A stretch of DNA of 64,000 bases from an uncultured Alphaproteobacteria bacterium (GTDB taxonomy: Bacteria; Pseudomonadota; Alphaproteobacteria; HIMB59; GCA-002718135): positions 16,563 through 80,562 of the forward strand of contig CACJAV010000001.1 in the NCBI GenBank assembly GCA_902591485.1, read 5' to 3'. Made by a program: the position numbers and the translations under genes. This document shows positions 6,321 to 52,155 of this stretch, one piece after another. Under the pieces are notes generated by a model, which did not search any database, was not told the DNA's origin, and saw nothing but the letters and a program-made list of their open reading frames with translations. Position 1 is the stretch's first letter, and the number at the start of each line of letters is the position of its first letter.

Positions 6321-7113
6321 TTTTTAAATTTTGATTTGATGCTGTGTCTAAAATAAACTGCCATGCAGTTCTGCCTGTTCTATTTCCTCTTCGTAAGCTC
6401 CACTGAATCGCTTTCTTTTTAATACTCTCATCATAATTAATTTTATAAAACTGACAGTAGGTTTCGATAATTTTTAAATAATCAATTTGTGATAATTTAT
6501 GAAATCCAATCCAAAGACCAAATCTATCACTTAGACTAATCTTCTCTTCAACACTTTCATCTGTATGTATTGCTGATGATCTTTCATTGTCTATCATATC
6601 TCTTGGCATAAGATGGCGTCGATTAGACGAAACATATAATAAAATATTATTAGGTTGATTTTGAATACTTCCATCTAATGTTGATTTTATAATTTTGTAA
6701 TCACTATCTATTTTTTCAAATGATAAATCGTCAATAAAAATAATAAATCTGTAATAATATAATTTTCCAATAATTTGATATAAATACTCAATATCAAAAA
6801 TATTGTTTTTGTTAAGTTGAATTAATTTTAAATTATTGTGTTTTGATAAAACTTTATGAAATACTGATTTGATTAGAGAGCTTTTTCCATTTCCTCTTGC
6901 TCCCCATAGAAGGGCATTATTAGTGAAATTACCCTCAGCAAAATTTATCGTATTATTTAATAAAATTTCTTTTTGACTATCAATACCTATAATTAGATTT
7001 AAATTTAATGGTGTAAAATCCTTAATAGGATGGATACTTTTGTTTTCATTTTTCCAAATAAAATAAGCATTTCGCTTAACAGTTTCTTTTAATAAAAAAT
7101 TTTTAAAAAACAT
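6310..7113 (-). CDS. AAA-type ATP-binding protein (DUF815 family)
   Basis: 267 aa. Walker A LLWGARGNGKSSLIKS, Walker B-like FIIFIDDLSF. This family commonly neighbours yajC-secDF in alphaproteobacteria. Confidence 0.7.
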   Translation of the reverse strand: MFFKNFLLKETVKRNAYFIWKNENKSIHPIKDFTPLNLNLIIGIDSQKEILLNNTINFAEGNFTNNALLWGARGNGKSSLIKSVFHKVLSKHNNLKLIQLNKNNIFDIEYLYQIIGKLYYYRFIIFIDDLSFEKIDSDYKIIKSTLDGSIQNQPNNILLYVSSNRRHLMPRDMIDNERSSAIHTDESVEEKISLSDRFGLWIGFHKLSQIDYLKIIETYCQFYKINYDESIKKKAIQWSLRRGNRTGRTAWQFILDTASNQNLKINF

Positions 7114-7189
7114 GTGATTTCGTTACTTTAATTGCTTTTTTCTTTTACACAGTATAAGAAATCTCTCAAATTAATAATCAAGGAAATTT

Positions 7190-7540
7190 ATGGAATCAAT
7201 TGGCGCTTTTCTACCATTAATTTTAATTTTTGGTGTTTTTTATATCCTATTAATTAGACCTCAACAAAAGAAGGTAAAACAGCATCGCGAAATGCTAAAT
7301 AACCTTAGAAGAGGAGATAAAATAATTACCTCTGGTGGAATTATAGGAACAATTAACAAAGTAGCAGATAACAGAGAATTGCAAGTGCAGGTTTCTGAAA
7401 ATGTTGAAATAAAAATTGCACCTGGAATGGTTGCTGATCTTTATATTTCTGCTGAAACAGAAAAAAAACAACAAGTAAAAGAAACTAAAAATGAAACAAA
7501 AGGTGGATTATTATCAGGTCTTTTGGGTAAGAAAAAATAA
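7190..7540 (+). CDS. yajC: preprotein translocase subunit YajC
   Basis: 116 aa. Single TM, then LIRPQQKKVKQHREMLNNLRRGDKIITSGGIIGTI. Lies upstream of secDF. Confidence 0.85.
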   Translation: MESIGAFLPLILIFGVFYILLIRPQQKKVKQHREMLNNLRRGDKIITSGGIIGTINKVADNRELQVQVSENVEIKIAPGMVADLYISAETEKKQQVKETKNETKGGLLSGLLGKKK

Positions 7541-7546
7541 ATCAAT

Positions 7547-9097
7547 ATGAAAAATTATCCTCTATGGAAGATTTTTATAGTTATCATTTTATTATTTTTA
7601 GGTATCATATTTGCTATACCATCTTTGCTATATAAAGAAAATACAGGTAGTTGGTATCTAGATAATCGTTTAAATCTCGGTTTAGATTTGCAAGGCGGCT
7701 CTTATCTACTTCTTGAAGTTCAAACAGATGTTTTAATTAAGGAAGAATTTGAAAATTTTAGTGATACCGTTAGAATAATTGCAAGAGAGAATAGAGTTAA
7801 AATTAATAATATCGAAAAGAATGATGAAGCTTTAAAAGTTCGATTTGATAGTGGAGATAAATTAAAAATTATTCGTGAAGAATTTCTAAAAAATTATCGC
7901 TCTGTAAATTTTGCTATAACAAATAATATTATTTCAATAACAATTGATGAAATATACAAAAAATCTATTCAAGACGCAGCTATCAAACAGTCATTAGAAA
8001 TTGTAAGAAAAAGAATAGATGAATCTGGCACAAAAGAACCTTTAATTCAACGATCTGGCAGAGATAGAATTCTTCTTCAATTACCCGGTGTAAAAGATCC
8101 TGAAAGAATAAAAGATCTTTTAGGTAAAACAGCTAAGTTAAATTTCCATATGGTAGATGACGACGATACAAAATCTTTATCACTAAATATTGCTCCTTTT
8201 GGTAGAATGATTGTTTCAGATATTGATAATGAAGATATTAAATATTTATTAGAAAAAAAATCACGGGTAGGGGGTGAAAATTTAATTGATGCTTATGCTT
8301 CATTTGATCCCACAGAAGGACATGCTGTTTCTTTCAGATTTGATACAACCGGTGCGCAAAAATTTGGTAAAGCAACTTCTGAAAATATAGGAAAAAGATT
8401 TGCAGTTGTTTTAGACGGTGTTGTAATTACTGCACCAGTTATTAACTCGGCAATTACTGGTGGATCAGGTATAATAACTGGAAACTTTACTTCTCAGGAA
8501 GCAACAGATTTGGCAGTTTTGTTAAGAGCTGGAGCATTACCCGCCCCATTAGAAATTGTTGAAGAGAGATCTGTCGGTCCTGGACTTGGGGCAGACTCAA
8601 TAGCAGCTGGCAAGATTGCTGCTATAATAGGAATGGTACTTGTTTGTATATTTATGGTTCTCATTTATGGATCTTTTGGTTTAATTGCCAACATATCACT
8701 CATAGCTAATTTATTTATAATAATTGCTTTACTTGGAACAATTGGTGCTACTCTAACTTTACCTGGTATTGCCGGTATAGTTTTAACAATTGGAATGGCA
8801 GTTGATGCAAATGTTTTAATCTTTGAGAGAATTAAAGAAGAAAATACCAAAAATAAAAAGGTATATGAAACAATCAAAAAAGGTTTTGATAGAGCTCTTT
8901 CGACTATTTTAGATGCCAATATAACAACATTAATTGCATCCTTATTATTGTTTATATTTGGCTCTGGACCAATAAAAGGTTTTTCAATTACTTTATCTTT
9001 AGGAGTAATTGCATCAATGTTTACTGCATTGATGCTTACTAATCTTTTAGTCCATTTTTATATTTCTTTTGCTTCAAAAAAGGAGATTAATTTATAA
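7547..9097 (+). CDS. secD: protein translocase subunit SecD
   Basis: 516 aa. GLDLQGGSYLLLEV, large periplasmic domain, C-terminal 5-TM block with VDANVLIFERIKEE. Confidence 0.9.
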   Translation: MKNYPLWKIFIVIILLFLGIIFAIPSLLYKENTGSWYLDNRLNLGLDLQGGSYLLLEVQTDVLIKEEFENFSDTVRIIARENRVKINNIEKNDEALKVRFDSGDKLKIIREEFLKNYRSVNFAITNNIISITIDEIYKKSIQDAAIKQSLEIVRKRIDESGTKEPLIQRSGRDRILLQLPGVKDPERIKDLLGKTAKLNFHMVDDDDTKSLSLNIAPFGRMIVSDIDNEDIKYLLEKKSRVGGENLIDAYASFDPTEGHAVSFRFDTTGAQKFGKATSENIGKRFAVVLDGVVITAPVINSAITGGSGIITGNFTSQEATDLAVLLRAGALPAPLEIVEERSVGPGLGADSIAAGKIAAIIGMVLVCIFMVLIYGSFGLIANISLIANLFIIIALLGTIGATLTLPGIAGIVLTIGMAVDANVLIFERIKEENTKNKKVYETIKKGFDRALSTILDANITTLIASLLLFIFGSGPIKGFSITLSLGVIASMFTALMLTNLLVHFYISFASKKEINL

Positions 9098-9999
9098 TGT
9101 TTGGTCTAAATAAAATAATACCTGTTGACTCTGATTATAAATTTTTAAATTACAGAAAAAAATTCTATATAGCTTCTGGTGTCGCTATTTTACTATCTTT
9201 AATCCTCCTATTTTTTAAAGGATTAAATTTAGGAATTGATTTTAAAGGTGGAACTTTAATTGAAGTTAGTACCCAAAATACGAATATTGGTGAATTGCGT
9301 GATATCTTATCACCAAATTTTAATGAAGTTTCTCTTCAAGAATTTGGTGATGAAAATACTATAATAATCAGATTACAAAATGAAAACAACCAGGAAAGTA
9401 TTGAAACAGTTAATAAGGTTAAGCAACTGATTAGTGATAAAGTACAAGAGTTTAGAAGATCAGAATTTGTAGGACCTACAATTAGTTCTGAATTATTATG
9501 GAAAGGTTTTCAAGCCGTCTCTTTTGCTTTATTTGCTATTTTAATTTACATCTGGTTGAGGTTTGAATGGCAGTTTGGTTTTGGAGCTGTAGTCGCCTTA
9601 ACACATGATGTTCTTTTTACACTAGGCGTTTTATCAATTTTGAATGTAGAATTTTCTCTATCCACAATTGCAGCTGTATTAACAATCGCAGGATATTCAA
9701 TAAATGATACTGTTGTAATTTTTGACAGAGTCAGAGAAAACTTAAGAAAGTATAAAAAACTTGAACTCTTAGATCTGTTTAATTTATCAATTAATAATAC
9801 GCTCTCAAGAACTGTTATGACTAGTATTACGACACTATTAGCATTGTTATCACTCTATATTTTTGGTGGTGAGGTAATTAAGCCTTTTGCTTTAACAATG
9901 ATTATTGGTGTATTAATAGGAACTTATTCATCAATATTTATTGCGGTCCCAACTTTATTAGTTTTTAAGTTCAGACCGCAAGAAGATGATGAAAATTAG
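9097..9999 (+). CDS. secF: protein translocase subunit SecF
   Basis: 300 aa. GIDFKGGTLIEV, INDTVVIFDRVRENL. Start overlaps the secD stop. Confidence 0.9.
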   Translation: MFGLNKIIPVDSDYKFLNYRKKFYIASGVAILLSLILLFFKGLNLGIDFKGGTLIEVSTQNTNIGELRDILSPNFNEVSLQEFGDENTIIIRLQNENNQESIETVNKVKQLISDKVQEFRRSEFVGPTISSELLWKGFQAVSFALFAILIYIWLRFEWQFGFGAVVALTHDVLFTLGVLSILNVEFSLSTIAAVLTIAGYSINDTVVIFDRVRENLRKYKKLELLDLFNLSINNTLSRTVMTSITTLLALLSLYIFGGEVIKPFALTMIIGVLIGTYSSIFIAVPTLLVFKFRPQEDDEN

Positions 10000-10000
10000 T

Positions 10001-10600
10001 TTAAGAGTTCTTTAAGAAATTTTCTGTAACTTTTTCCCAGTTAACCATATTGTCAACAAATGCTTTTAAGTAATCAGGTCTTCTATTTCTATAATCAACG
10101 TAGTAAGAATGCTCCCAGACATCGCAACCCAAAAGGGGAACGTGACCATGTACTATAGGGTTTTCTGCATTAGGAGTTTTGGTAATTTCAAGTTTACCTC
10201 CATTTAATACAAGCCAACACCAACCTGAACCAAACTGTCCAATGCCAGCGTTTATAAATGCTTCTTTCATTTCTTCGACTGATCCTAAATCTTCATTGAT
10301 TTTATTTTCTAATTCAGAAGGTATTTTACCATCTGGGTTATTTTTCATAATTTCCCAGAAATGAATGTGATTTAAATGCTGTGAAACATTGTTAAATACA
10401 GGGGCGTTTTTATTATATGTATTCTTAACAATATCTTCTATCGAATCTTCACTTAAATTATTTTCTTTAATAAATTTATTTCCGTTAGTGACATATGCCA
10501 TGTGATGTTTGTCATGATGCAACTCTAAAGTTTCAGCAGACATATAAGGTGCAAGAGCATCTTTACTATAAGGTAAATCAGGCAACTCTAAGTTTATCAT
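10001..10600 (-). CDS. sodB: Fe-type superoxide dismutase
   Basis: 199 aa. LPDLPY, LHHDKHHMAYV, DVWEHSYYVDYRN. Gln in FNNVSQHLNH favours the Fe type. Confidence 0.9.
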   Translation of the reverse strand: MINLELPDLPYSKDALAPYMSAETLELHHDKHHMAYVTNGNKFIKENNLSEDSIEDIVKNTYNKNAPVFNNVSQHLNHIHFWEIMKNNPDGKIPSELENKINEDLGSVEEMKEAFINAGIGQFGSGWCWLVLNGGKLEITKTPNAENPIVHGHVPLLGCDVWEHSYYVDYRNRRPDYLKAFVDNMVNWEKVTENFLKNS

Positions 10601-10614
10601 TTTTTTTCCTTTAT

Positions 10615-13419
10615 TTATAAAATTTTTTTTAAGAAACTACCTGTAAAGCTTTTTTTACTATTTGCAATATCTTCAGGAGAGCCCTTTGCTATGATTTCTC
10701 CACCTTTAACACCGCCAAGTGGACCTAAATCAATAATGTAATCTGCTGTCTTTATAACATCTAAATTATGCTCAATAACAATAACGGTATTACCCTCATC
10801 TACCAATGTATGTAATATTTTTAGTAACTTGTTAACATCATCAAAATGTAATCCAGTTGTTGGCTCATCTAAAATATATAGAGTTTTTCCAGTTGATCTT
10901 TTGGACAATTCTTTTGATAATTTTATACGTTGAGCTTCTCCACCTGAAAGAGTGGTCGCTGATTGTCCAATTTTAATATAATCTAATCCCACATCAACTA
11001 GAGTTTTTAATTTTTGTTTAATTGAAGGTATTTTTGAAAAAAAATTGTAACCTTCTTCTACCGTCATATCTAACACTTCTGCAATTGATTTGTTGTTGTA
11101 TTTAACTTCTAACGTTTCCCGGTTATATCTTTTGCCTTTACAAATATCACACTCAACATAAACATCTGCTAAAAAATGCATTTCAATCTTTTTGACACCA
11201 TCACCCTCACAAGATTCACATCTTCCACCTTTCACATTAAAAGAAAAGCGTCCTGGTTTATATCCTCTTGCATTAGATTCATTTAACCCAGCATACCAAT
11301 CTCTAATTGGCGTGAAACAGCCTGTATAGGTAGCTGGATTAGATCTTGGAGTTCTTCCAATAGGAGATTGATCTATATCAATAACTTTATCAATATTTTT
11401 AATACCTTTAAAATTGAAATAACCCTCTTCTTTATTCAATGATTTGTTAAAATATTCATCAAGTCTTTTGTATAGTGTATCAATAATCAATGATGATTTT
11501 CCACTACCAGAAACTCCTGTTACACAAATAAAATTACCTAAAGGAAATATTACTTCTAAATTATTAAGATTATTTGTGTTAATTTTTTTTAGAGTGAAAA
11601 CTTTATTTTTATTAAATTTTCTTCTTTGATCTGGAATTTTAATTTTCTTTTTTTTATTTAGATATTGGGCTGTTAAACTTTTTGTATTTTTAAGAACATT
11701 TTTTAGATTGCCTTGTGCAACAACTTCACCACCATGAATTCCTGCTTTTACTCCAATATCAATGACATGATCAGATTGCTTTATTGCATCTTCATCATGC
11801 TCTACGACTATTACTGTATTTCCAAGGTCTCTTAATTTAAAAAGTGTATTAATTAATTGTTGATTGTCTTTTTGATGTAATCCAATTGAGGGTTCATCTA
11901 ATACGTATAATACACCTGTTAATCCTGATCCAATTTGACTTGCTAATCTTATTCTCTGACTTTCACCCCCAGATAAACTTTTACTTGCTCTTGCTAGAGA
12001 TAAATAATCTAGACCCACTTTATTTAAAAATTCTAGCCTATCTTTTATTTCTTTGATTACACCTTCAGCAATTTTATTTTCATTATCTGATAGATTTTTT
12101 TTAATTTTACTGAACCATGCATAGCAATCATCAATTGATTTTTTAGTGATTTCTCCAATGTGTTTTCCTACTATTTTAACTGATAAAGCTTTTTCATTTA
12201 ATCTGTAACCCTTGCATACTTCACAATCTCTCTCAGATAAATATTTTTCTAATTCATATTGTATCCACCATCTTTCTGTTTCAGAATATTTTCTATCAAT
12301 AAAATGAATAATCCCTTCAAAACCTTTTAAAAAAGTTAAATCATTATTTGCATCTCCATAAAGTATAATGTTTTGAATAGTTTTTGGTATCTTGTACCAA
12401 GGAGTATTTATATTTATTTTATAATTTTTTAAAATTTTTGATATTGTTTCAACAAAAAATTTTTTTTGATAACCAAATACTTTAGTTTCCCAAGGTTTTA
12501 TTGCACCTTTTAAAATTGACCTAGAGTCATCAGGAATAATTTTTTTGTCATCAAAAAATTTTTCTATTCCAATTCCATCACATTCATTGCAAGCTCCCAT
12601 TGGAGCATTAAAGCTAAACAGTCTTGGCTCTATTTCTTCTATTGAAAAACCAGAAACTGGACATGCAAATTTTGATGAGTATGTTGATATTTTTTTTGTA
12701 TCCAAGTCCTCAAGATATATTAATCCATCTGATAAGGTTAAACCTATTTCAATACTTTCAGCTAATCGTTGTTGAATATTTTTTTTTACAATTAATCTAT
12801 CTACAAGAACATCAATATTATGTTTAAAATTTTTTTTTAATTTTGGAACATTTTCAATCTCATAGATTTTTCCATCAACTTTTAGTCTTTGATATCCTTT
12901 CTTTTTTAATTCTTCTATTTCTTTTCTGTATTCTCCTTTTCTATCCCTTACTATGGGCGCAAGAATATAAGCTTTACTTCCTTCATTAATCTCCAATATA
13001 CTATCGCAAATTTCGCTTACACTTTGAGACTTGATAGGCAAACCCGTAGATGGTGAGTAAGGTACACCAACTCTAGCAAATAGAACTCTTAAATAATCAT
13101 AAATTTCAGTAACTGTACCAACTGTACTTCTTGGATTTTTTTGAGTTGTCTTTTGTTCAATAGAAATCGCTGGAGATAAACCATCAATAGAGTCAACATC
13201 TGGCTTATTCATCATTTGCAAAAACTGTCTTGCATAAGCAGACAAGCTTTCGACATATTTTCTTTGACCTTCAGAGTATATAGTGTCAAATGCTAACGTT
13301 GATTTGCCTGACCCACTTACTCCTGTGATAACAACAAATTTATTTTTTGGTATTTCAAGACTAATATTTTTTAAATTGTGCTCCCTTGCACCTTTAATAA
13401 CAATTTTGTCGTGAATCAT
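10615..13419 (-). CDS. uvrA: excinuclease ABC subunit A
   Basis: 934 aa. Two ABC modules (GVSGSGKSTLAFDTIY, GVSGSGKSSLIIDTLY), zinc-finger Cys clusters, two LSGGE signatures. Confidence 0.95.
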   Translation of the reverse strand: MIHDKIVIKGAREHNLKNISLEIPKNKFVVITGVSGSGKSTLAFDTIYSEGQRKYVESLSAYARQFLQMMNKPDVDSIDGLSPAISIEQKTTQKNPRSTVGTVTEIYDYLRVLFARVGVPYSPSTGLPIKSQSVSEICDSILEINEGSKAYILAPIVRDRKGEYRKEIEELKKKGYQRLKVDGKIYEIENVPKLKKNFKHNIDVLVDRLIVKKNIQQRLAESIEIGLTLSDGLIYLEDLDTKKISTYSSKFACPVSGFSIEEIEPRLFSFNAPMGACNECDGIGIEKFFDDKKIIPDDSRSILKGAIKPWETKVFGYQKKFFVETISKILKNYKININTPWYKIPKTIQNIILYGDANNDLTFLKGFEGIIHFIDRKYSETERWWIQYELEKYLSERDCEVCKGYRLNEKALSVKIVGKHIGEITKKSIDDCYAWFSKIKKNLSDNENKIAEGVIKEIKDRLEFLNKVGLDYLSLARASKSLSGGESQRIRLASQIGSGLTGVLYVLDEPSIGLHQKDNQQLINTLFKLRDLGNTVIVVEHDEDAIKQSDHVIDIGVKAGIHGGEVVAQGNLKNVLKNTKSLTAQYLNKKKKIKIPDQRRKFNKNKVFTLKKINTNNLNNLEVIFPLGNFICVTGVSGSGKSSLIIDTLYKRLDEYFNKSLNKEEGYFNFKGIKNIDKVIDIDQSPIGRTPRSNPATYTGCFTPIRDWYAGLNESNARGYKPGRFSFNVKGGRCESCEGDGVKKIEMHFLADVYVECDICKGKRYNRETLEVKYNNKSIAEVLDMTVEEGYNFFSKIPSIKQKLKTLVDVGLDYIKIGQSATTLSGGEAQRIKLSKELSKRSTGKTLYILDEPTTGLHFDDVNKLLKILHTLVDEGNTVIVIEHNLDVIKTADYIIDLGPLGGVKGGEIIAKGSPEDIANSKKSFTGSFLKKIL

Positions 13420-41181: not shown

Positions 41182-42219
41182 ATGATGAATTTATTACAAC
41201 GTTTAGATAAAGGACCAATCATTTGTGCTGAAGGTTATTTATTTGCAATGGAAAGAAGGGGTTATCTTTCTGCAGGTGCATTTGTTCCTGAAGTAGTAAT
41301 AGAACATCCAGAAGTAGTAAGTCAATTACACCGAGAATTTATTCGTGCAGGTAGTGATGTTGTTCAAGCTTTTACATATTATGGACATAGAGAAAAACTT
41401 AGAATCATTGGTAAGGAGCACTTATTAGAACAACTTCAAAAAGATGCATTGCAAATTGCTAAAAATGCAGCAAATGAGTTTAAAGAATTAGATTTGATGG
41501 TTTGCGGAGATGTAGCAAATACAAATATATATGATCCAAATGATCAATCTACAATTAAACAATGTCAAAAAATGTATGAAGAGCAAATTTTGTGGGCAAA
41601 AGAAGCTGGTGTAGATTTTGTTGTTGCAGAGACAATTAATTGGGTTGAGGAAATGAAAATAGCTTTACAGGCTATTAAAAGAGAAAACATAATAGCAGTT
41701 ACAAATTTTGCAATACCAAGAGGTGATATTACTAGAGATGGTTATACTCCTGCCGAAGCTTGTAAGATGATGGAAGATCTTGGGGCAGATGTTGTTGGTT
41801 TAAATTGTTATAGAGGCCCAAAAATGACTATGAAATTTATTGATGAAATAAGAAATAATGTATCATGCCATGTGTCTGCATTACCTGTACCATATCGAAC
41901 AACTGAAAAAGAGCCAGGTTTTTTAAATATTAGTGATCATGGATGCGATTGCATACCTGATAACAATGCTTTTCCAGTTGCGCTCGATAATTTGTATTGT
42001 AACCGTTATGAAATGGCAGAATTTGCTAAAGAATGTATGCAAAAAAAAGTAAACTTTATTGGTATATGTTGTGGAGCTGAGGCTCATCATGTAAGAGAAA
42101 TGTCAATTGCTGTTGGTAAAGAGCCTATCTCGATGAAATATATTCCTGATATGAGCAAACATTTTCATCATGGATATGACAAAACGCTAAAAGATGTTAA
42201 TAAAAAAATTACTTATTGA
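41182..42219 (+). CDS. bhmt: betaine--homocysteine S-methyltransferase (Hcy-binding domain, BHMT-like)
   Basis: 345 aa. The N-terminus closely parallels animal BHMT (AEGYLFAMERRGY...PEVVIEHPEVVSQLHREFIRAGSDVVQAFTYY). Zn-ligand Cys residues at GLNC and GICCG. Confidence 0.85.
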   Translation: MMNLLQRLDKGPIICAEGYLFAMERRGYLSAGAFVPEVVIEHPEVVSQLHREFIRAGSDVVQAFTYYGHREKLRIIGKEHLLEQLQKDALQIAKNAANEFKELDLMVCGDVANTNIYDPNDQSTIKQCQKMYEEQILWAKEAGVDFVVAETINWVEEMKIALQAIKRENIIAVTNFAIPRGDITRDGYTPAEACKMMEDLGADVVGLNCYRGPKMTMKFIDEIRNNVSCHVSALPVPYRTTEKEPGFLNISDHGCDCIPDNNAFPVALDNLYCNRYEMAEFAKECMQKKVNFIGICCGAEAHHVREMSIAVGKEPISMKYIPDMSKHFHHGYDKTLKDVNKKITY

Positions 42220-43019
42220 TTATAATTGTAATAAAATAATTGCTTATCCTTAACTTTAAAATTATTAATTATTTCCTTTACTTCATTTGTTTTGAACCAG
42301 TCAAAATATTTTTTTGCATTATTAAAATTTAAATTTTTATTTAAATTTGGATTTACTAAAATAATGCCATACTGATTAAATAAAGGTGGAAGATTTTCAC
42401 AAACAATTTTAAGATTATTTTTGTAATTAAATGCTATCCAAGTACTTCTGTCAGATAAAGTATATCCTTTTTTTTCATTAGCAATTAATAATGTACTCCC
42501 CATTCCCTGTCCAACACTCAAATACCATTGAGATTTATCATTTATTATTAATTCTGACTCCGACCAAATTTCTATTTCTTTTCTATGTGTTCCACTATCA
42601 TCACCTCTAGAGATGAATAAATAATTTTTACTATGTATTTGTTTTAATTTATCCTGAACTGATAAACATTCTATATTATCTTCTTTAGGTCCAACTAAAA
42701 TATAATCATTGTACATAATTTCACTTCTTTCCAAGCCATACCCATCTTTAATAAATTCTAATTCTGAAGGTTCATGATGAACAAGTAAAATTTCTGCATT
42801 TCCATCTTTTGCCGTTCTGATAGCCTGTCCTGTTCCTAAAGATAATACCTGAACTCTAATATTATATTTTTCATAAAATTTGCTATTAAGTGCATCTAGT
42901 AAACCTGTATCATAAGTTGAAGTCGTACTAGCTACAATAATTTTACTCTCAGCGTTAACAGTGTTGGTAAATACTGTTAAAACTAAAATTTTTAAAAAAG
43001 TTAATAAAATTTTTTTCAT
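42213..43019 (-). CDS. periplasmic oxyanion-binding protein, TupA-like (tungstate/molybdate-type PBP)
   Basis: 268 aa. Signal peptide. Mature N-terminus ESKIIVASTTSTYDTGLLDAL, GTGQAIRTAKDGNAEILLVHH, MYNDYILVGP. Its 3' end overlaps the bhmt stop by 7 nt. Confidence 0.7.
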   Translation of the reverse strand: MKKILLTFLKILVLTVFTNTVNAESKIIVASTTSTYDTGLLDALNSKFYEKYNIRVQVLSLGTGQAIRTAKDGNAEILLVHHEPSELEFIKDGYGLERSEIMYNDYILVGPKEDNIECLSVQDKLKQIHSKNYLFISRGDDSGTHRKEIEIWSESELIINDKSQWYLSVGQGMGSTLLIANEKKGYTLSDRSTWIAFNYKNNLKIVCENLPPLFNQYGIILVNPNLNKNLNFNNAKKYFDWFKTNEVKEIINNFKVKDKQLFYYNYNQ

Positions 43020-43020
43020 T

Positions 43021-43824
43021 TTAAGGAGTTTTTAAAGTATAAGAAGCCCATAAAGAATGCCATTTTGCATACTTATCTTTTTTTTTATTACTTCCTTTAA
43101 TTATTACTACACTATCAATTAAATATTTTGTATTTTTTTTAAAGACGTATTCAATGTATCCTTTAGAGTTAGTTCTTAAATAATCTACTTTTAAATTATT
43201 ATCTTTTATGCTCATTATCGTAATTTGATGATCAACAAGAATATTATTTTTATATTCTAATAAAATTCTTTTATTTTTGGTTAATTCTAGCAGTGGATTG
43301 TCTAGAAATATTAATTCCAATTTCATCCCAGTATCAACATCTGAACCTTGATGATTATCTATGGAAACAATTGATTTTGCATACCTTTTATAACTCTCTA
43401 CAAAATTGAGAGGGTAGTTATTATATTGATGTTCTTCCGCTAAATTCCGATAACCCTTTTTTCTTGAAAATATATCGAATTTTAGAAGACCATCATAATC
43501 AACATAATTAATTGAAGATATTACTTGAAGAATGTTTATCCCTGTGTTGCCCTTTTTTGTATTTAAAGCAGGTAAGTCCCCCAATCTTCCTTTAATTTTT
43601 ATTTTTTTATTTCCTGAATATAAATTAGTTATCTCAAACTCTTTTTTAGAATAAGGTAATTGCGAACCTAAAAAATTTTCACCAATTAATAGTTTTGCGC
43701 TAATTTGATTACTATTTTCTAAGTGATAATTAATTGGATCAATCCAAAATTCATGACAATATACGTTTTTAAATATTGAAGTTATAATTATAATAAATAA
43801 AAAGCTTGTAAATATTTTTTTCAT
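43021..43824 (-). CDS. DUF4198-family periplasmic protein (putative metal-binding)
   Basis: 267 aa. Signal peptide followed directly by HEFWIDP (the family hallmark H-[DE]-[FL]-W). Beta-rich. Ends 1 nt before the SBP gene. Confidence 0.65.
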   Translation of the reverse strand: MKKIFTSFLFIIIITSIFKNVYCHEFWIDPINYHLENSNQISAKLLIGENFLGSQLPYSKKEFEITNLYSGNKKIKIKGRLGDLPALNTKKGNTGINILQVISSINYVDYDGLLKFDIFSRKKGYRNLAEEHQYNNYPLNFVESYKRYAKSIVSIDNHQGSDVDTGMKLELIFLDNPLLELTKNKRILLEYKNNILVDHQITIMSIKDNNLKVDYLRTNSKGYIEYVFKKNTKYLIDSVVIIKGSNKKKDKYAKWHSLWASYTLKTP

Positions 43825-43826
43825 TC

Positions 43827-44999
43827 ATGCCTACTTTAATCAAATTTTCAAAAATAATGAAATTAAATATAATTTTTTATTTTTTTATATTTTTAACATT
43901 TTATTCTACATTAGCAATTTCACACGAAATTAGACCCTCAATTGCAGATTATAAGATTGAAGAAAATATATTATTTTTTGATGTACGACTTAATGCAGAA
44001 TTAATACTCTCTGGTATTGATGCTTCAAAAATCACGGACACTAATTCATCTACATTAAGTGGAACTTATGATGATTTAAGATCGTTAACTGGAGAAGAAC
44101 TTAAAGCATTATTTATTAAGTCATGGATAAAAATTCAGTCAAAAATGAATTTAAATATAAACGATGTACCTAGGAAATTTGAACTCATAGATATGGATAT
44201 TCAAAGCAATAGTAATTTTGAAATTTCTAGAGATTCAATATTATATCTTAAAGCTATACTTGATGAAGATACTGAATATTTTACTTTTAAATGGGATGAG
44301 CAATATGGTCCAATTATCATTAGAGAAATTAACGAATTAGAGTACGATGATGATTTATATACACAGTATTTACAATCTGGATTACAAACAGATAAAATTT
44401 TTATTAAAAAAGGAAACACTCGATCTATTTTTAATAGTATAGTTGATTATTTTATTCTTGGTATTCAACATATAATTCCAAAAGGTTTAGATCATATATT
44501 ATTTATTGTTGGACTGTTCTTCTTTTCTGTTTCTTTGAAACCCTTATTAATCCAGGTAACTATGTTTACCATTGCACATTCCATTACTTTAATTTTTGTT
44601 ACTGTTTCATTTATTAATATCAATCCTATAATAGTTGAGCCAATTATAGCTCTCTCCATTGCTTATGTGGGTGTAGAAAATATTTTTAAAAAATATGTCA
44701 AAGATTATTTACGATATATTATTATATTCTTTTTTGGTTTATTGCACGGGTTAGGCTTTGCTCTTGTTTTAAGTGATATAGGTTTTCAGAGTTCAAAACT
44801 GATACTTAATTTGATTTCTTTCAATTTAGGTATTGAGGCTGCTCAAATTTTCATAATTTTATTTTTGTATCTTATAATTGGCACCATGTTTTCAAGTAAA
44901 AAATATTACAGATATGTGTTTCAAATTCCTGTATCCCTTTTTATAGCTTTAGTGGGAATGTATTGGTTTTTTGATAGAATAGGTATGCCCATATTTTAA
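43827..44999 (+). CDS. HupE/UreJ-like membrane protein with ~190-aa N-terminal periplasmic extension
   Basis: The C-terminal half has GIQHIIPKGLDHILFIVGLFF and FFGLLHGLGFA motifs in ~6 TM. The N-terminal half is soluble and starts with His after the signal peptide (TLAISHEIRP). The true start may be the ATG at 43857 (MKLNIIFYFF...). Confidence 0.7.
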   Translation: MPTLIKFSKIMKLNIIFYFFIFLTFYSTLAISHEIRPSIADYKIEENILFFDVRLNAELILSGIDASKITDTNSSTLSGTYDDLRSLTGEELKALFIKSWIKIQSKMNLNINDVPRKFELIDMDIQSNSNFEISRDSILYLKAILDEDTEYFTFKWDEQYGPIIIREINELEYDDDLYTQYLQSGLQTDKIFIKKGNTRSIFNSIVDYFILGIQHIIPKGLDHILFIVGLFFFSVSLKPLLIQVTMFTIAHSITLIFVTVSFININPIIVEPIIALSIAYVGVENIFKKYVKDYLRYIIIFFFGLLHGLGFALVLSDIGFQSSKLILNLISFNLGIEAAQIFIILFLYLIIGTMFSSKKYYRYVFQIPVSLFIALVGMYWFFDRIGMPIF

Positions 45000-45009
45000 T
45001 ATGGGCATA
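44984..45009. terminator. stem-loop between convergent genes (possible terminator, non-canonical)
   Basis: TATGCCCATA (44984-44993) pairs with TATGGGCATA (45000-45009), 6-nt loop. Spans the HupE-like stop codon. No clean U-tract on either strand. Confidence 0.3.
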
Positions 45010-45070
45010 AAAATTAAGGAGGTAAGTACCCTTATAATTAATCCGACTTAATTATTTTTCAACGGTTGAC

Positions 45071-45421
45071 CTAGATAAAAATACCTAATTTTTTCAAAAA
45101 ATAAGTAAAAATAAAATAAATTATAGCAGTTCCAATTATAGAAATAATAATTGAAAATGCAAAATTTTGTTTAAATTTAAGTAAAATAGGTAAAATAATA
45201 AAAAATGCAAAACCCGGAATACTAAGTAAAATAGTGCCATAGGATAAATCAATAACTTTTTGGTAGTCTTTTGTGTCTATATAAAGCCAACTAAAAGCCA
45301 ATAATGATGTTAGAGGAATGGAAATGATTATTGCGCCTATAAAAGTAGATTTTTTAGCTACTTCAGAAACAATCACTATAATTAAAGCGGTAATTATTAG
45401 TTTTGTAAAATAATACATCAT
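45071..45421 (-). CDS. small 4-TM membrane protein (DUF3147-like)
   Basis: 116 aa, hydrophobic. Downstream of the EamA gene on the same strand. Confidence 0.5.
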   Translation of the reverse strand: MMYYFTKLIITALIIVIVSEVAKKSTFIGAIIISIPLTSLLAFSWLYIDTKDYQKVIDLSYGTILLSIPGFAFFIILPILLKFKQNFAFSIIISIIGTAIIYFIFTYFLKKLGIFI

Positions 45422-45429
45422 ATTTTAAG

Positions 45430-46287
45430 TTAGTCTAATTTGTTTAATAAATAAATAGATACAATAACAATTATTCCTCCTATTAAAATTATTATAGTCG
45501 GAATTTCATTAAATAATATCATTGTTTGTAGTATTCCAAATATGGGAAACAAGGAATAAAATGGAAATATTCTTTGAACTGTGTAAGTTTTATAAAGGTA
45601 AAATATAGACATATGAGCAATTATTGAGATAAAAATTGCTGAGTGAAATATCAATAACCACGAATTAATATCAATCATTATAATGTTTTCTTTTGTATTA
45701 CCTTCAAACATAATAGAAAAAATTAAGAGCAAAATGAAACCAACTAAAGCCATAAATGCATTAGTATAAACTACATCCAATTCTTTCAAATACCTTGAGA
45801 ACACTTGAGATCCTCCATAGAAGAATGACATTAATGTTACAAGACCTAAAGCTAATTTTTCATTTGTTAATGCTGGATCAAATCCAATTAGAAATACACC
45901 AAAAAAACTTGTAAAAATTAATATCCATTTTTTTAAATTTACTTTTTCTTTTAAAAAAATAGAGCTTAATAAAATACCAAAAGGTATTGATAATTGTGCA
46001 CCAATTATAGTAGGTGCTAAAATATCTGCTACGTAAATAGATAAATTTAAAAAAACATTAGTTGCAAAACCCATAAAGAAACCAAAACCTAAAAGAGGAA
46101 TCCAATATTTTCGTTCAGGAATTTGTATTTTTATAAAAGGCAATAATACCATAAATACAATTAACATTCTCAATGACCCCATAAGAAGTGGCGGAACATC
46201 ATTGTTAAATATTAATTTACCAACTGGATATGAGCTTCCAAAAAGAAATGTTATCAATAATATCCAAAAAAAGTGTTTTATTGTCAT
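45430..46287 (-). CDS. DMT superfamily (EamA-type) permease
   Basis: 285 aa, ~10 TM, LKEKVNLKKW inter-repeat loop. Confidence 0.75.
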   Translation of the reverse strand: MTIKHFFWILLITFLFGSSYPVGKLIFNNDVPPLLMGSLRMLIVFMVLLPFIKIQIPERKYWIPLLGFGFFMGFATNVFLNLSIYVADILAPTIIGAQLSIPFGILLSSIFLKEKVNLKKWILIFTSFFGVFLIGFDPALTNEKLALGLVTLMSFFYGGSQVFSRYLKELDVVYTNAFMALVGFILLLIFSIMFEGNTKENIIMIDINSWLLIFHSAIFISIIAHMSIFYLYKTYTVQRIFPFYSLFPIFGILQTMILFNEIPTIIILIGGIIVIVSIYLLNKLD

Positions 46288-48682: not shown

Positions 48683-50257
48683 GTGAAAAAAATTATTGTT
48701 ATTATTATTGTTATAGCTGCTGTTGCAGGTGGATACTATTTTTATAACTTAAACAATACTGAAATTTCAACAACTTCATATGAATATATTAAAATAGAAA
48801 AGGGTAATATCAAGAAGACAGTTTCAGCAACTGGAAAAATCATCCCAACTTCAACATTAACATTATCATCAGAAATATCTGGAAAGATAGTTGATATAAA
48901 CAAGGATTTTAATGAAAAGATCAAAAAAGGTGAGGTGTTAGCAACATTTGATCAAAATCCATTTATTTTGAATGTTGAAGAAACTGAAACTTCAGTAAGT
49001 ATATCTAAATCAAAGTTAAAACAAAAAAATGGAAGTCTAGAAAAAGCAAAATCAGAATTAAATAATTCTATTTCAAATAAAAATGGAGCTGTATCTAAGC
49101 TTAATGACTCATCTCTTAATATTAAAAAACTTAAGGAAAATTTGGATGATAAAACAAAGTTATATGAAAAAAAATTTATATCTAAAAAAGAACTTGAAGA
49201 TGCTAAGTTTGAATATGAGAGTGCAGTATTTCAATACAGCACATTGGAATCTGAAATTTTATCACTCAATGCTATTATTGATTCTAGAGAAGCCCAAATT
49301 AAAATTATTAATGCTGAAATAGAAGAGGTTGAAACATTAATTGAACAAACTGAATTAACTTTGGAAAGTGAAAAATTAGATTTAAGTAAAACGAAAATAG
49401 TTTCACCAATTGATGGTTTTATATTAGATAAACACATAAGTGTTGGTGATGTTTTGGGAGCTTACCAAAAAGATTCAATAATGTTTACGATTGCTGAAAC
49501 TTTATCAAAAATGAATATCGAAATATTTATAGATGAGTCAGATATTGGTAATATAAAACCAAATCAAGAAGTACAATTTACCACTGATGCTTTCCCTGAT
49601 AGAAATCTAAAGGCTACTATAACTCAAATTAGATATTCTCCCATAGATGATCAAAACGTTATTACTTACGAGGTTATTGCTTCATTTGATAATCCTAATA
49701 ATATTCTCTTACCGGGCATGACAGCTAATGTTGATATTATTGTAGAAAATAAAAATGATGTTTTGAAAGTTAAAAATTCAGCACTTTCAGTTAAATTAAA
49801 TCAAAAACCTAAAAAAAATTCTGGTAGTGGAAATCGATGGGGAGGAGGAGGGGCTTCTCAACTTCAAGAAATAATGGGTCAACTTAACATGACTACAGAG
49901 CAACAAAATAAAATGCGGGGTGTATACCCTAAATTAGGCAAGGTAAGAGACTCATTAACTGCTAAAAATCTATCGCCAGAGAAAATTCGAAAAGAAATTC
50001 AGCTGTATATTGAAAATGCACTCATTGAATTACTAAGTGATGAGCAAAAAAATAAATTCTTTGAATTAAAAGAATCCCTTAATGTTAAAAAAGTTTACAA
50101 ACTTGTAGATGGTGAACATCAAAAAACTGATTTAATAACGGGTTTAAATTCTGGTGGCTATACTGAAATAATAAATGGGGAAATTGAGGAGGGTGATGAA
50201 GTAATATCTAAAGTTATTATTGAAACTTCAAATAAAAAAGCTCTTAGACTATTTTAA
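48683..50257 (+). CDS. macA: efflux periplasmic adaptor (HlyD/MacA family) with ~95-aa C-proximal insertion
   Basis: 524 aa, GTG start preceded by GAGGTG. N-terminal TM, lipoyl halves, long coiled-coil hairpin, beta-barrel. An insertion with a G-rich linker and two LTxxQ-like motifs precedes the membrane-proximal domain. Confidence 0.8.
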   Translation: MKKIIVIIIVIAAVAGGYYFYNLNNTEISTTSYEYIKIEKGNIKKTVSATGKIIPTSTLTLSSEISGKIVDINKDFNEKIKKGEVLATFDQNPFILNVEETETSVSISKSKLKQKNGSLEKAKSELNNSISNKNGAVSKLNDSSLNIKKLKENLDDKTKLYEKKFISKKELEDAKFEYESAVFQYSTLESEILSLNAIIDSREAQIKIINAEIEEVETLIEQTELTLESEKLDLSKTKIVSPIDGFILDKHISVGDVLGAYQKDSIMFTIAETLSKMNIEIFIDESDIGNIKPNQEVQFTTDAFPDRNLKATITQIRYSPIDDQNVITYEVIASFDNPNNILLPGMTANVDIIVENKNDVLKVKNSALSVKLNQKPKKNSGSGNRWGGGGASQLQEIMGQLNMTTEQQNKMRGVYPKLGKVRDSLTAKNLSPEKIRKEIQLYIENALIELLSDEQKNKFFELKESLNVKKVYKLVDGEHQKTDLITGLNSGGYTEIINGEIEEGDEVISKVIIETSNKKALRLF

Positions 50258-50258
50258 A

Positions 50259-50942
50259 ATGATTAAGATTGACTCTATCTCAAAAGAATATGTAATGGGA
50301 GATAACAAACTTTTAGCTCTGAATAATGTAAATGTGTCTATTTTAAATGGTGAGTTTGTTTCAATTATGGGGTCTTCAGGCTCCGGCAAATCAACATTGA
50401 TGAATATTATTGGCTGTTTAGATGTTCCTTCAAGTGGAGATTATTTTTTCAAGGATGATAATATTTCAAATTTTAATGCAAATAAACTTGCTGAACTTCG
50501 TAATAGAGAAATTGGTTTTATTTTTCAAAATTTTAATCTTTTACCTAGACTGAATGCCCTAGAAAATGTTGTCTTACCTTTATTATATTCAGGTAAAAAT
50601 CAGAAAGAAAGAAATAACCTTGCTTTAAAAGCCCTAGAAAATGTAGGTCTTAAAGATCGTGTTCATCATAGACCAAATCAATTATCTGGTGGTCAACAAC
50701 AAAGAGTATCAATAGCTAGAGCTATTGCTGGTTCTCCTAAATTAATTTTAGCTGATGAGCCAACTGGAGCACTAGATAGTAAGACAAGTATAGAAATTAT
50801 GAAAATACTAAATGATTTAAATGCTAAAGGTATAACTGTAGTTTTAGTTACTCATGAAGATGATATAGCTAAATATGCCTCTAGAATTATTAAAATGAAA
50901 GATGGCCAGATAATTGAGGATAAAAAAAATGTCCCTAACTGA
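50259..50942 (+). CDS. macB: ABC transporter ATP-binding protein (MacB/LolD type)
   Basis: Preferred ATG at 50259 (MIKIDSISKEY), 1 nt after the macA stop. Walker A GSSGSGKSTL, signature LSGGQQQRVSIARA, Walker B ILADEPTGALD. Confidence 0.9.
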   Translation: MIKIDSISKEYVMGDNKLLALNNVNVSILNGEFVSIMGSSGSGKSTLMNIIGCLDVPSSGDYFFKDDNISNFNANKLAELRNREIGFIFQNFNLLPRLNALENVVLPLLYSGKNQKERNNLALKALENVGLKDRVHHRPNQLSGGQQQRVSIARAIAGSPKLILADEPTGALDSKTSIEIMKILNDLNAKGITVVLVTHEDDIAKYASRIIKMKDGQIIEDKKNVPN

Positions 50943-52155
50943 TCTTATCTACTTATCACAAAAAAGTTTACGCTCTAATATTTTAAGAAGTGTTTTAACT
51001 TCTCTTGGTATAATTATTGGAGTTAGTTCTGTAATAACAATGATCTCTATTGGTTCAGGAGCTAGACAAGAAGTTGAAGAACAAATTGAAAGATTTGGAT
51101 CAAATAACTTAATTTTAAGATCTCAAAGTTCATCTAATAGAGGTGTTTCAATGGGAGCTAATTCTATAAATACTCTAACATTAAAAGACATGGAAGCTCT
51201 TAAAAATGAATTACCTGCAATTTCAGCAATTGCTCCTAGAGTTAGTTTGAGTACACAAATTATAGCAAATGGAAATAATTGGTTAGCAACAGTCACGGGG
51301 ACTACAAATGATTATTTTAATTTAGGAAATTGGAAGTTTGAATTAGGAAGATCATTTCAAGATGATGAATTAGACTCTGGATCAAGGGTAGCAATAATAG
51401 GTAAAACTGTTCAAAAAAATTTATTTGGAACAGATAGTCCAATTGATGAAGTTATCAGGATTAACAAAGTCCCATTTACTGTAATAGGTTTATTAGATGC
51501 AAAAGGTGGAACAGCTTGGGCAGATTTAGATGATACAATTGTCGTTCCGTTAAAAACCGCTAAACAAAGACTCGTTGCTAAAAAATTTCCTGGTGATCAA
51601 ATACGTAGCATGACAATTAATGTATCTTCATCTGATTTACTTTTTAAAACAGAAAAAGATATTGATACAGTAATGAGAAAATTACACAAAATTTCAGCAA
51701 ATGGAAATCCTGATTTTGTAATTAGAAATTATGCTCAATTCTTAAATGCCAGACAAGAGTCATCTAGAGTTATGTCTATTCTTTTAGCAACTGTTGCTGG
51801 TATATCCCTAATTGTTGGAGGGATTGGCATTATGAATATCATGTTAGTTACTGTCACAGAGAGAACAAAAGAAATTGGTGTTTGTATGTCTGTTGGTGCA
51901 AAAAAAAGAGATATATTGCTACAGTTTTTAATAGAATCTTTAATGATTTCTCTTATTGGCGGATTAATTGGTATTGGTTTGGGATTAGGTGTAATTTTTG
52001 GGGTTAGTGAATACTTTAATTGGAAAATGAGTTTAGATTATTTTTCTTTAGTTTTATCATTTGTTTTTTCATCATCTATTGGAATTATATTTGGTTTTTA
52101 TCCTGCAAGAAAAGCAGCCAATCTTAATCCTATTGACGCTCTAAGATACGAATAA
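50929..52155 (+). CDS. ABC transporter permease (MacB_PCD + FtsX domains)
   Basis: Preferred ATG at 50929 (MSLTDLIY...). N-terminal TM, periplasmic domain, C-terminal FtsX 3-TM block with ERTKEIGV and PARKAANLNPIDALRYE. Confidence 0.85.
   Translation: MSLTDLIYLSQKSLRSNILRSVLTSLGIIIGVSSVITMISIGSGARQEVEEQIERFGSNNLILRSQSSSNRGVSMGANSINTLTLKDMEALKNELPAISAIAPRVSLSTQIIANGNNWLATVTGTTNDYFNLGNWKFELGRSFQDDELDSGSRVAIIGKTVQKNLFGTDSPIDEVIRINKVPFTVIGLLDAKGGTAWADLDDTIVVPLKTAKQRLVAKKFPGDQIRSMTINVSSSDLLFKTEKDIDTVMRKLHKISANGNPDFVIRNYAQFLNARQESSRVMSILLATVAGISLIVGGIGIMNIMLVTVTERTKEIGVCMSVGAKKRDILLQFLIESLMISLIGGLIGIGLGLGVIFGVSEYFNWKMSLDYFSLVLSFVFSSSIGIIFGFYPARKAANLNPIDALRYE

Follow-up and report, generated by a model that had tools for sequence, protein, structure and literature searches.

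The window analysed here is a 64-kb stretch of contig CACJAV010000001.1 from an uncultured alphaproteobacterium. Within it, three adjacent genes encode a TupA-type substrate-binding protein (SBP), a DUF4198 protein, and a permease of the HupE/UreJ type. The region probably comprises two independent functional units that adjoin in some SAR11 lineages: a head-to-head pair formed by the DUF4198 gene and an Ang-1 anglerase–HupE/UreJ-2 fusion gene, and the separate SBP gene. This reading is based on homology, on the conservation of metal and oxyanion ligands, on the pairing of the first two genes, and on the separability of the third. The SAR11-type assignment of the region is well supported by the G+C content of the window (~27%) and by its homologues, which carry Pelagibacteraceae labels or stem from marine single-cell genomes. 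The three genes lie as follows:

42213-43019, minus strand: SBP gene, 268 amino acids (aa); predicted TupA-family periplasmic oxyanion (tungstate/molybdate-type) binding protein.
43021-43824, minus strand: DUF4198 gene, 267 aa; predicted periplasmic metal-binding protein, divergent from the permease gene.
43827-44999, plus strand: Ang-1–HupE/UreJ-2 fusion gene, 390 aa; an "anglerase"–permease by homology.

An earlier reading of the same stretch (the original prediction) had described these open reading frames, with their coordinates, strands, and characteristic motifs, all of which reappear in the translations; its family assignments (TupA-type SBP, DUF4198, HupE/UreJ) agree with the Pfam and NCBIfam profiles. 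The stop codon of the DUF4198 gene is separated by 1 nt from the start of the SBP gene, and the SBP is probably co-transcribed with DUF4198 in this lineage, in line with the operon that had been proposed. On the other side, the start codons of the DUF4198 and permease genes stand back to back with 2 nt between them (window 43824-43827); hence, the promoter of each gene must sit within the coding sequence of the other. A promoter scan returned fewer sites than in shuffled sequence and is uninformative.

Judged from its sequence, the product of 43827-44999 is an Ang-1 anglerase–HupE/UreJ-2 fusion, and every sequence-level feature of such proteins is present. Ang-1 anglerases were defined by Franco Cairo et al. 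(Nat Commun 2025, PMC12537917) as His1 periplasmic β-sandwich domains fused to HupE/UreJ-2 (PF13795) in Pseudomonadota. The window protein is organized into three parts:

43827-43922, plus strand: signal peptide, aa 1-32, upstream of 43923; predicted from sequence.
43923-44396, plus strand: periplasmic Ang-1 β-sandwich domain, His33 to approximately aa 190.
44448-44996, plus strand: HupE_UreJ_2 membrane domain, aa ~208-390, preceded by a linker.

The membrane domain is recognized by the Pfam model HupE_UreJ_2 (PF13795) over aa 208-355 (E 4.9e-43; 146.9 bits against a threshold of 24.5), and the related PF04955 also matches it at 31 bits, above its gathering cut-off (GA) of 23. No Pfam model matches aa 1-207. 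The cleavage site, read from the sequence, lies between STLAIS and HEIRP and follows the Ala/Ser pattern at positions -3 and -1, which makes His the first mature residue. In a phmmer search, the N-terminal domain aligns with 9gce_A over aa 33-168 (E 6.7e-13), with His33 corresponding to His1 and Asn73 to Asn41. Both residues are invariant across 17 homologues down to 60% identity, as are four His residues of the membrane domain (H205, H213, H241, and H297 in alignment numbering), the spacing of which resembles that of the His194/His201/His229 site proposed for MmAng-2a. The AlphaFold2 model of the permease protein (predicted local distance difference test score, pLDDT, 71.5) reproduces the published Ang-1 topology, in which helices are inserted between strands 2 and 3. 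Its top PDB match in Foldseek is 9GCE (E 6.8e-11, target template modelling (TM) score 0.84); PA4063 and ZrgA, which bind zinc in the periplasm, come next. The extra soluble N-terminal domain noticed in the original prediction is thus the Ang-1 domain.

In the case of RbAng-1a, the crystal structure 9GCE shows Cu coordinated by His1 and Asn41, and the dissociation constants (Kd) are 74 nM for Cu2+ and 220 nM for Ni2+ (PMC12537917). The full-length RbAng-1a–HupE/UreJ-2 protein (Rhodobacteraceae bacterium PD-2, ETA49561.1, 9GCE) shares with the window protein the signal peptide, His1, the β-sandwich with a helical insert between strands 2 and 3, the linker, and PF13795. The mature N-terminus reads HEVRPAIGD there and HEIRPSIAD here, with His1 and Asn41 kept, and both proteins are alphaproteobacterial with DUF4198 as a neighbour. 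However, the two are only 28% identical over the Ang-1 domain, and the window protein belongs to a streamlined low-GC genome and is known here from sequence and a model. The loci also differ in that the window has start codons 2 nt apart and a TupA-like gene after DUF4198. Compared with RbAng-1a, the classical HupE/UreJ proteins (PF04955; R. leguminosarum HupE), described as nickel uptake permeases (cited in PMC12537917 and PMC4771312), are more distant relatives: they have a related membrane domain, a signal peptide followed by His, and secondary metal transport in common with the window protein, but the latter is closest to the sister family PF13795, possesses an extra periplasmic domain of ~160 aa, and has no gene link to hydrogenase or urease.

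The product of 43021-43824 is, by profile and fold, a DUF4198 member of a distant subfamily. It scores 46.1 bits with Pfam DUF4198 (PF10670) against a gathering score of 34, and an exhaustive search of representative sequences finds 824 relatives. A plain phmmer search against the PDB gives no match; a profile of 72 subfamily sequences reaches Zcp (9MHI) at E 3e-6 and IsDUF4198/NikK (9GCB) at E 0.057. The N-terminal region is read as follows:

Within 43021-43824, minus strand: signal peptide, aa 1-23, and mature N-terminus His24-Glu-Phe-Trp.

H24, E25, and W27 of this mature N-terminal H-E-x-W motif are invariant in the 72 diverse subfamily members. The placement of His directly after the signal peptide in both proteins, to which the original prediction drew attention, is therefore an invariant feature of each (H24 and His33). 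In the AlphaFold2 model of the DUF4198 protein (pLDDT 76.5), the nine best PDB matches in Foldseek are Zcp (9MH*) and 9GCB, with E 1e-11 to 2e-8 and TM 0.59-0.73, and Zcp is the best of them. H34 and H132, candidates for further metal ligands, are conserved in the subfamily, and their spacing resembles that of the Zcp ligands H29, H31, and H142.

Both structurally solved relatives handle transition metals. Zcp from N. gonorrhoeae binds Zn, Co, Ni, and Cu and is dispensable for zinc uptake (PMC12663993), and IsDUF4198 from Ideonella sakaiensis binds Ni2+ with a Kd of 18 nM via His1 and His18 (PMC12537917). The window protein shares with Zcp (9MHI-9MHO, PMC12663993) and IsDUF4198/NikK (9GCB) the Pfam family, the fold (Foldseek E 1e-11 and 2e-8, respectively), the periplasmic location, and a His at or near the mature N-terminus, but it stands apart at ~10-13% identity in structural alignment. 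There are also significant differences in genetic context. The zcp gene is monocistronic, Zur-regulated, and has no HupE partner (PMC12663993), and IsDUF4198-type genes adjoin TonB receptors and NikR, whereas the window subfamily is paired with the Ang-1–HupE permease. In Pelagibacter, DUF4198 has been put forward as a marker for adaptation to limiting trace metals (PMC12972064).

The pairing was surveyed over 80 metagenome loci (L014-L093), with permease genes 36-99% identical to the query and G+C from 0.23 to 0.69. In 70 loci, 400 bp or more of sequence precedes the permease gene, and in 69 of these DUF4198 lies directly upstream and divergent, over the same range of G+C, which argues that DUF4198 and Ang-1–HupE cooperate. 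The sole exception (L087, G+C 0.64) has an Ang-1–HupE gene without a divergent DUF4198 partner. The layout is generally tight, with a median gap between the hidden Markov model (HMM) envelopes of -1 nt across these 69 loci, whose G+C differs widely. All-against-all clustering of neighbours in the 80 loci revealed no third partner that is broadly conserved; the next family occurs in 13 of 80. IndA-like and PfkB-like genes recur in seven to eight loci, in agreement with PMC12537917. The same paper lists DUF4198 among the prevalent gene neighbours of Ang-1. The arrangement of a DUF4198 protein with a His1-domain HupE/UreJ-2 protein was thus characterised structurally and biochemically in 2025 (PMC12537917), contrary to the statement in the original prediction that no characterised example was known. 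Here it is found in a SAR11-type marine bacterium, and the near-obligate pairing extends the published remark on the gene neighbourhood.

The two genes also diverge together. From locus to locus, the identities of DUF4198 and HupE to the window fall jointly (86/82, 79/77, 68/60, 64/62, and 52/53%). At three loci that occupy the same chromosomal site (L017, L022, and L023), the pair is 52-64% identical to the window, versus 73-88% for the genes on either side. This stronger divergence points either to rapid evolution of the two proteins, both of which are exposed to the periplasm, or to exchange of the pair as a cassette through recombination.

The pair would accordingly be read as a two-gene, head-to-head module that captures a divalent transition metal and takes it up by secondary transport without ATP; the metal may be Ni, Cu, Zn, or Co. 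After Sec export and cleavage of the signal peptides, both proteins would expose His as residue 1, with the free amine and the imidazole chelating the metal. In the periplasm, the soluble DUF4198 protein would capture or buffer the metal ion. Tethered by its linker, the Ang-1 domain would hold the ion via His1 and Asn and swing it onto the mouth of the HupE/UreJ-2 domain, where invariant His, Asp, and Glu residues may pass it to the cytoplasm. Delivery of this kind follows the anglerase model of Franco Cairo et al. 2025 (PMC12537917). The hand-off of the metal, its identity, and the direction of transport belong to the proposed part of this scheme. A non-ABC metal-uptake module as such, put forward in the original prediction, is retained for the DUF4198 protein and the extended HupE protein; the SBP probably does not belong to it, being present in few pair loci and separable in both directions, as described below.

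The main alternative, conceivable though unlikely, is that the two genes are co-regulated with no relay between their products. DUF4198 would then buffer metal in the periplasm or act as a chaperone of envelope metalloproteins, a role proposed for Zcp, and Ang-1–HupE would take up metal alone. The Ang-1 domain by itself supplies a capture function (PMC12537917), and the DUF4198 model resembles Zcp best. However, head-to-head adjacency in 69 of 70 loci over very diverse taxa, together with co-varying divergence, suggests a coupling tighter than shared regulation, and Zcp, whose gene stands alone, may be a poor model for this subfamily.

The SBP, in turn, matches PBP_like_2 in Pfam (E 6.5e-34) and TupA in NCBIfam (E 2.4e-66); the latter is its best and essentially only family match, at 223.9 bits and thus under the 400-bit equivalog cut-off. 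TupA-type structures in the PDB are matched at E ~1e-48 to 1e-58 (3lr1 at E 1e-53, 5my5 at E 4e-48). In TupA from D. alaskensis, the proposed oxyanion site consists of T9-T11, S12, H59, R118, T124, and D170 (PMC5517513). The corresponding residues in the SBP are S31/T32/T33/S34, H81, R138, T144, and D190; the first of them is Ser in place of Thr, a conservative replacement (STTS). These positions were compared in 124 sequences, namely 120 SAR11-type homologues, the window, L011, L012, and the Dehalococcoidia locus L013. Seven of the eight site positions are kept in all 124, and Ser occupies the first in 123, Thr occurring only in L013. Compared with the TupA proteins of D. alaskensis (5MY5) and G. 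sulfurreducens (3LR1), the SBP retains the motif and the equivalents of R118, T124, D170, and H59, but has STTS for TTTS and falls below the equivalog cut-off. The SBP is most likely a tungstate/molybdate binder on the strength of these residues, and oxyanion binding and cation transport are poorly matched in chemical terms.

The L013 relative, 35% identical to the SBP, is situated inside a canonical tupABC operon. Unlike this arrangement, the SAR11 contexts examined have no adjacent tupB or tupC, and the SBP is co-oriented with the DUF4198 gene; no tupBC was found within ±10 kb of the ~15 SAR11-type SBP copies examined. Within the 64-kb window, the TupB permease probe from the L013 operon has no tblastn match at E<10, and the corresponding ATPase probe finds the ATPase at ~50.3 kb, UvrA, and nothing else. 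One group of genes in the window was considered as the missing importer:

48683-52155, plus strand: ATP-binding cassette (ABC) exporter genes, comprising a MacA-like adaptor, a MacB-type ATPase, and an FtsX-type permease.

These genes were rejected as the importer, since they are of the MacA/MacB exporter type; the absence of tupBC and modBC from the window, stated in the original prediction, holds. At another locus (L006), a BPD_transp_1 permease near the pair was rejected as TupB, being of the polar-amino-acid type by sequence and giving no match to the TupB probe.

A scan of a genome collection with the SBP yields four loci. On tupABC or modABC in SAR11, the literature makes no statement either way. 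PF12849 is presumably assigned to Pfam clan CL0177. In a CL0177 search of strain HTCC1062, Clifton et al. 2024 (PMC11485210) list phosphate and iron binders as the only SBPs for inorganic solutes. As that list contains no tungstate/molybdate binder, the reference strain would lack the SBP gene, and the gene would be accessory within SAR11. The same strain possesses formate dehydrogenase, a molybdo/tungsto-enzyme, and genes for the biosynthesis of the molybdenum cofactor (Moco) (PMC3160333), and the route of Mo/W acquisition in SAR11 appears undescribed in the literature.

The relationship between the SBP and the pair is revealed by loci in which one occurs without the other. In SAR11-type lineages, the site of the trio has the order SelO, GFA, HalD-like, BHMT, trio, 116-aa gene, EamA, and OsmC, and the immediate neighbours in the window are as follows:

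41182-42219, plus strand: BHMT-like gene, convergent with the SBP gene.
45071-45421, minus strand: small membrane protein gene, 116 aa, PRK09272 / BV97_02767 family.

Forty-six loci of the survey have enough upstream sequence for the presence of the SBP to be evaluated. It is found in four of them, all low-GC (4 of the 14 low-GC loci; 0 of the 32 loci with G+C of at least 0.32). The pair without the SBP also stands at another chromosomal site, beside DHDPS-SmpB-RpoZ-SpoT, in L006, L007, and L094. It likewise lacks the SBP in L019 and L020.

Conversely, the SBP occurs without the pair in L012, where it is 60% identical to that of the window, and in L011 (83%). In L011, a single-cell genome (AG-447-L18), the alignment blocks end at window positions 43086 and 44940, and ~9910-9917 of that locus stands in place of window 43087-44939. 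This corresponds to a clean deletion of ~1.85 kb that removes the pair and leaves 3' remnants of ~60 nt of both genes, while the SBP reading frame of 270 aa is intact. L011 thereby constitutes a natural knock-out of the DUF4198/HupE pair. Where the pair diverges, the SBP stays at 73-86% identity, like the BHMT, EamA, and 116-aa genes. Since SBP identity tracks the flanks and the identities of the pair fall together, the region consists of two units with different evolutionary histories. The 129-kb JGI contig L008 carries, at 6873-10807, two PBP_like_2 genes (209 and 268 aa) and a truncated HupE_UreJ_2 gene of 207 aa without Ang-1, the DUF4198 gene being absent; either the locus is rearranged or decayed, or the assembly is chimeric.

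The trio, whose synteny the original prediction had proposed as a check, is kept in several SAR11 sublineages, but the SBP is not consistently inherited with the permease. A trio model is unsupported because the SBP is absent from 42 of the 46 pair loci and is retained without the pair in L011 and L012. The TupA-family binder would instead ride on the DUF4198 transcript and act apart from the metal pair, most likely with membrane components encoded elsewhere.

Several points weigh against a division into two independent units. The operon-like trio, with its 1-nt spacing between DUF4198 and SBP, is kept in several SAR11 sublineages in which the permease is 53%-99% identical to that of the window, so that co-expression of the SBP with the metal module is long-standing and not accidental. 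The ABC partner of the SBP is assumed, as tupBC was not found near the SAR11-type copies. L011 is one single-cell genome; its deletion is possibly recent, and the survival of the SBP there is perhaps not yet a sign of selection. Neither transport by any HupE_UreJ_2 protein nor hand-off from DUF4198 to Ang-1 has ever been directly demonstrated, and both structural models used here are of moderate confidence (pLDDT 71.5 and 76.5).

Alternatively, the SAR11 lineages with the SBP may lack TupBC genome-wide, with the TupA-like protein feeding tungstate or molybdate to a non-ABC partner, either the PRK09272 protein or the HupE-type permease. This general proposal is very unlikely, and each of the two partners can be weighed separately. 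With the HupE-type permease, the three genes would make up a single secondary transporter that depends on the SBP and replaces TupBC: the TupA-like protein would deliver a W/Mo oxyanion or a metal to the permease, and DUF4198 would act as a chaperone. The conserved 1-nt arrangement, the failure of the TupB probe to find a TupB-like permease in the window or in any SAR11 locus, and the presence of formate dehydrogenase and Moco genes in SAR11 (PMC3160333) would all fit such a system. However, the SBP is missing from most evaluable pair loci and from all of those outside the low-GC group, the pair stands elsewhere as a unit, and the SBP remains intact where the pair has been deleted or is absent. 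Its divergence follows the flanking genes and not the pair. Moreover, its site is of the oxyanion type; metal cations, by contrast, are what both His1 proteins and the HupE family handle, and the permease already has a tethered capture domain of its own. TRAP and TTT transporters are the known precedent for SBP-dependent secondary transport as envisaged in the original prediction, but no DctP- or TctC-family SBP and no DctQM or TctAB are present here, the SBP comes from an ABC-type family, and nothing indicates that it docks on the HupE-type protein. A three-gene transporter is therefore regarded as highly improbable.

The other partner, the product of 45071-45421, is a hydrophobic protein with apparently four membrane helices. 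It matches NCBIfam PRK09272.1-2 at E 7e-29, and Pfam BV97_02767 appears among the precomputed matches; a MerC-like identity was rejected, as the matches (E 0.2-0.5) are not significant. The protein may serve one of the two units as an accessory component. That it forms with the SBP a new binding-protein-dependent system without ABC components is given even less credence. In the two loci that have the SBP but lack the pair, the 116-aa gene immediately precedes the SBP gene and shares its orientation (L012, 9623-9973, with a 13-nt gap; L011, 9431-9781), and it is present in every SBP-bearing SAR11 locus whose contig covers that side. However, nine SBP-less loci of another lineage (G+C 0.28-0.40) have a distant PRK09272 homologue, matching the family full-length at E ~1e-12, directly downstream of DUF4198 in the slot of the SBP; the link may thus be to the metal pair or to neither. 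Examples of these homologues are:

L025, 4786-5121.
L030, 1286-1621.
L041, 1960-2295.

Furthermore, 116 aa is small for a transporter, the family has no known function, and all the SBP cases fall within SAR11-type lineages, where the synteny may be merely inherited.

Export or detoxification of metal by the HupE-type protein, with the pair as a resistance module, is the least credible of the alternatives: the direction of transport of HupE_UreJ_2 proteins has never been measured and the neighbouring small membrane protein has weak, non-significant MerC-like matches, but classical HupE/UreJ proteins are described as nickel uptake permeases, high-affinity periplasmic capture domains suit scavenging, an oligotrophic open-ocean bacterium meets metal scarcity and not excess, and the Pelagibacter DUF4198 protein has been proposed as a trace-metal-limitation marker (PMC12972064).

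The remaining features of the region are of minor weight. A terminator-like element is situated at the end of the permease gene:

44984-45009, no strand: terminator-like hairpin with an 11-bp stem, between the convergent permease and 116-aa genes.

It coincides with the permease stop codon and is the sole terminator-like site in 42000-45600, where 0.8 would be expected by chance, so that the number is about that of chance; in L011, where the permease gene is deleted, the hairpin is degenerate. The 3' ends of the BHMT-like and SBP genes overlap by 7 nt (42213-42219). The MacAB-type exporter genes are 98-100% identical in L011. Rfam scans for Moco or metal riboswitches gave none in or near the region, nor any other known RNA family there, with only two tRNAs elsewhere in the window.

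SAR11 dominates the surface ocean, and trace-metal acquisition there is poorly mapped; hupE/ureJ has been recorded in 45% and znuA in 50% of SAR11 genomes (PMC4771312). Separating the region into a metal pair and an oxyanion binder assigns an abundant pair of SAR11 genes to the recently defined anglerase/DUF4198 system, thereby offering a concrete mechanism, and removes a tempting three-component transporter model as unsupported. The accessory TupA-like binder, with no permease nearby, is the remaining loose end and bears on the supply of Mo/W in SAR11. If it did act with a non-ABC partner, this would concern bacteria that need Mo/W for formate dehydrogenase and have no described Mo/W importer, and would represent a new class of binding-protein-dependent oxyanion uptake in the most abundant bacteria of the ocean.

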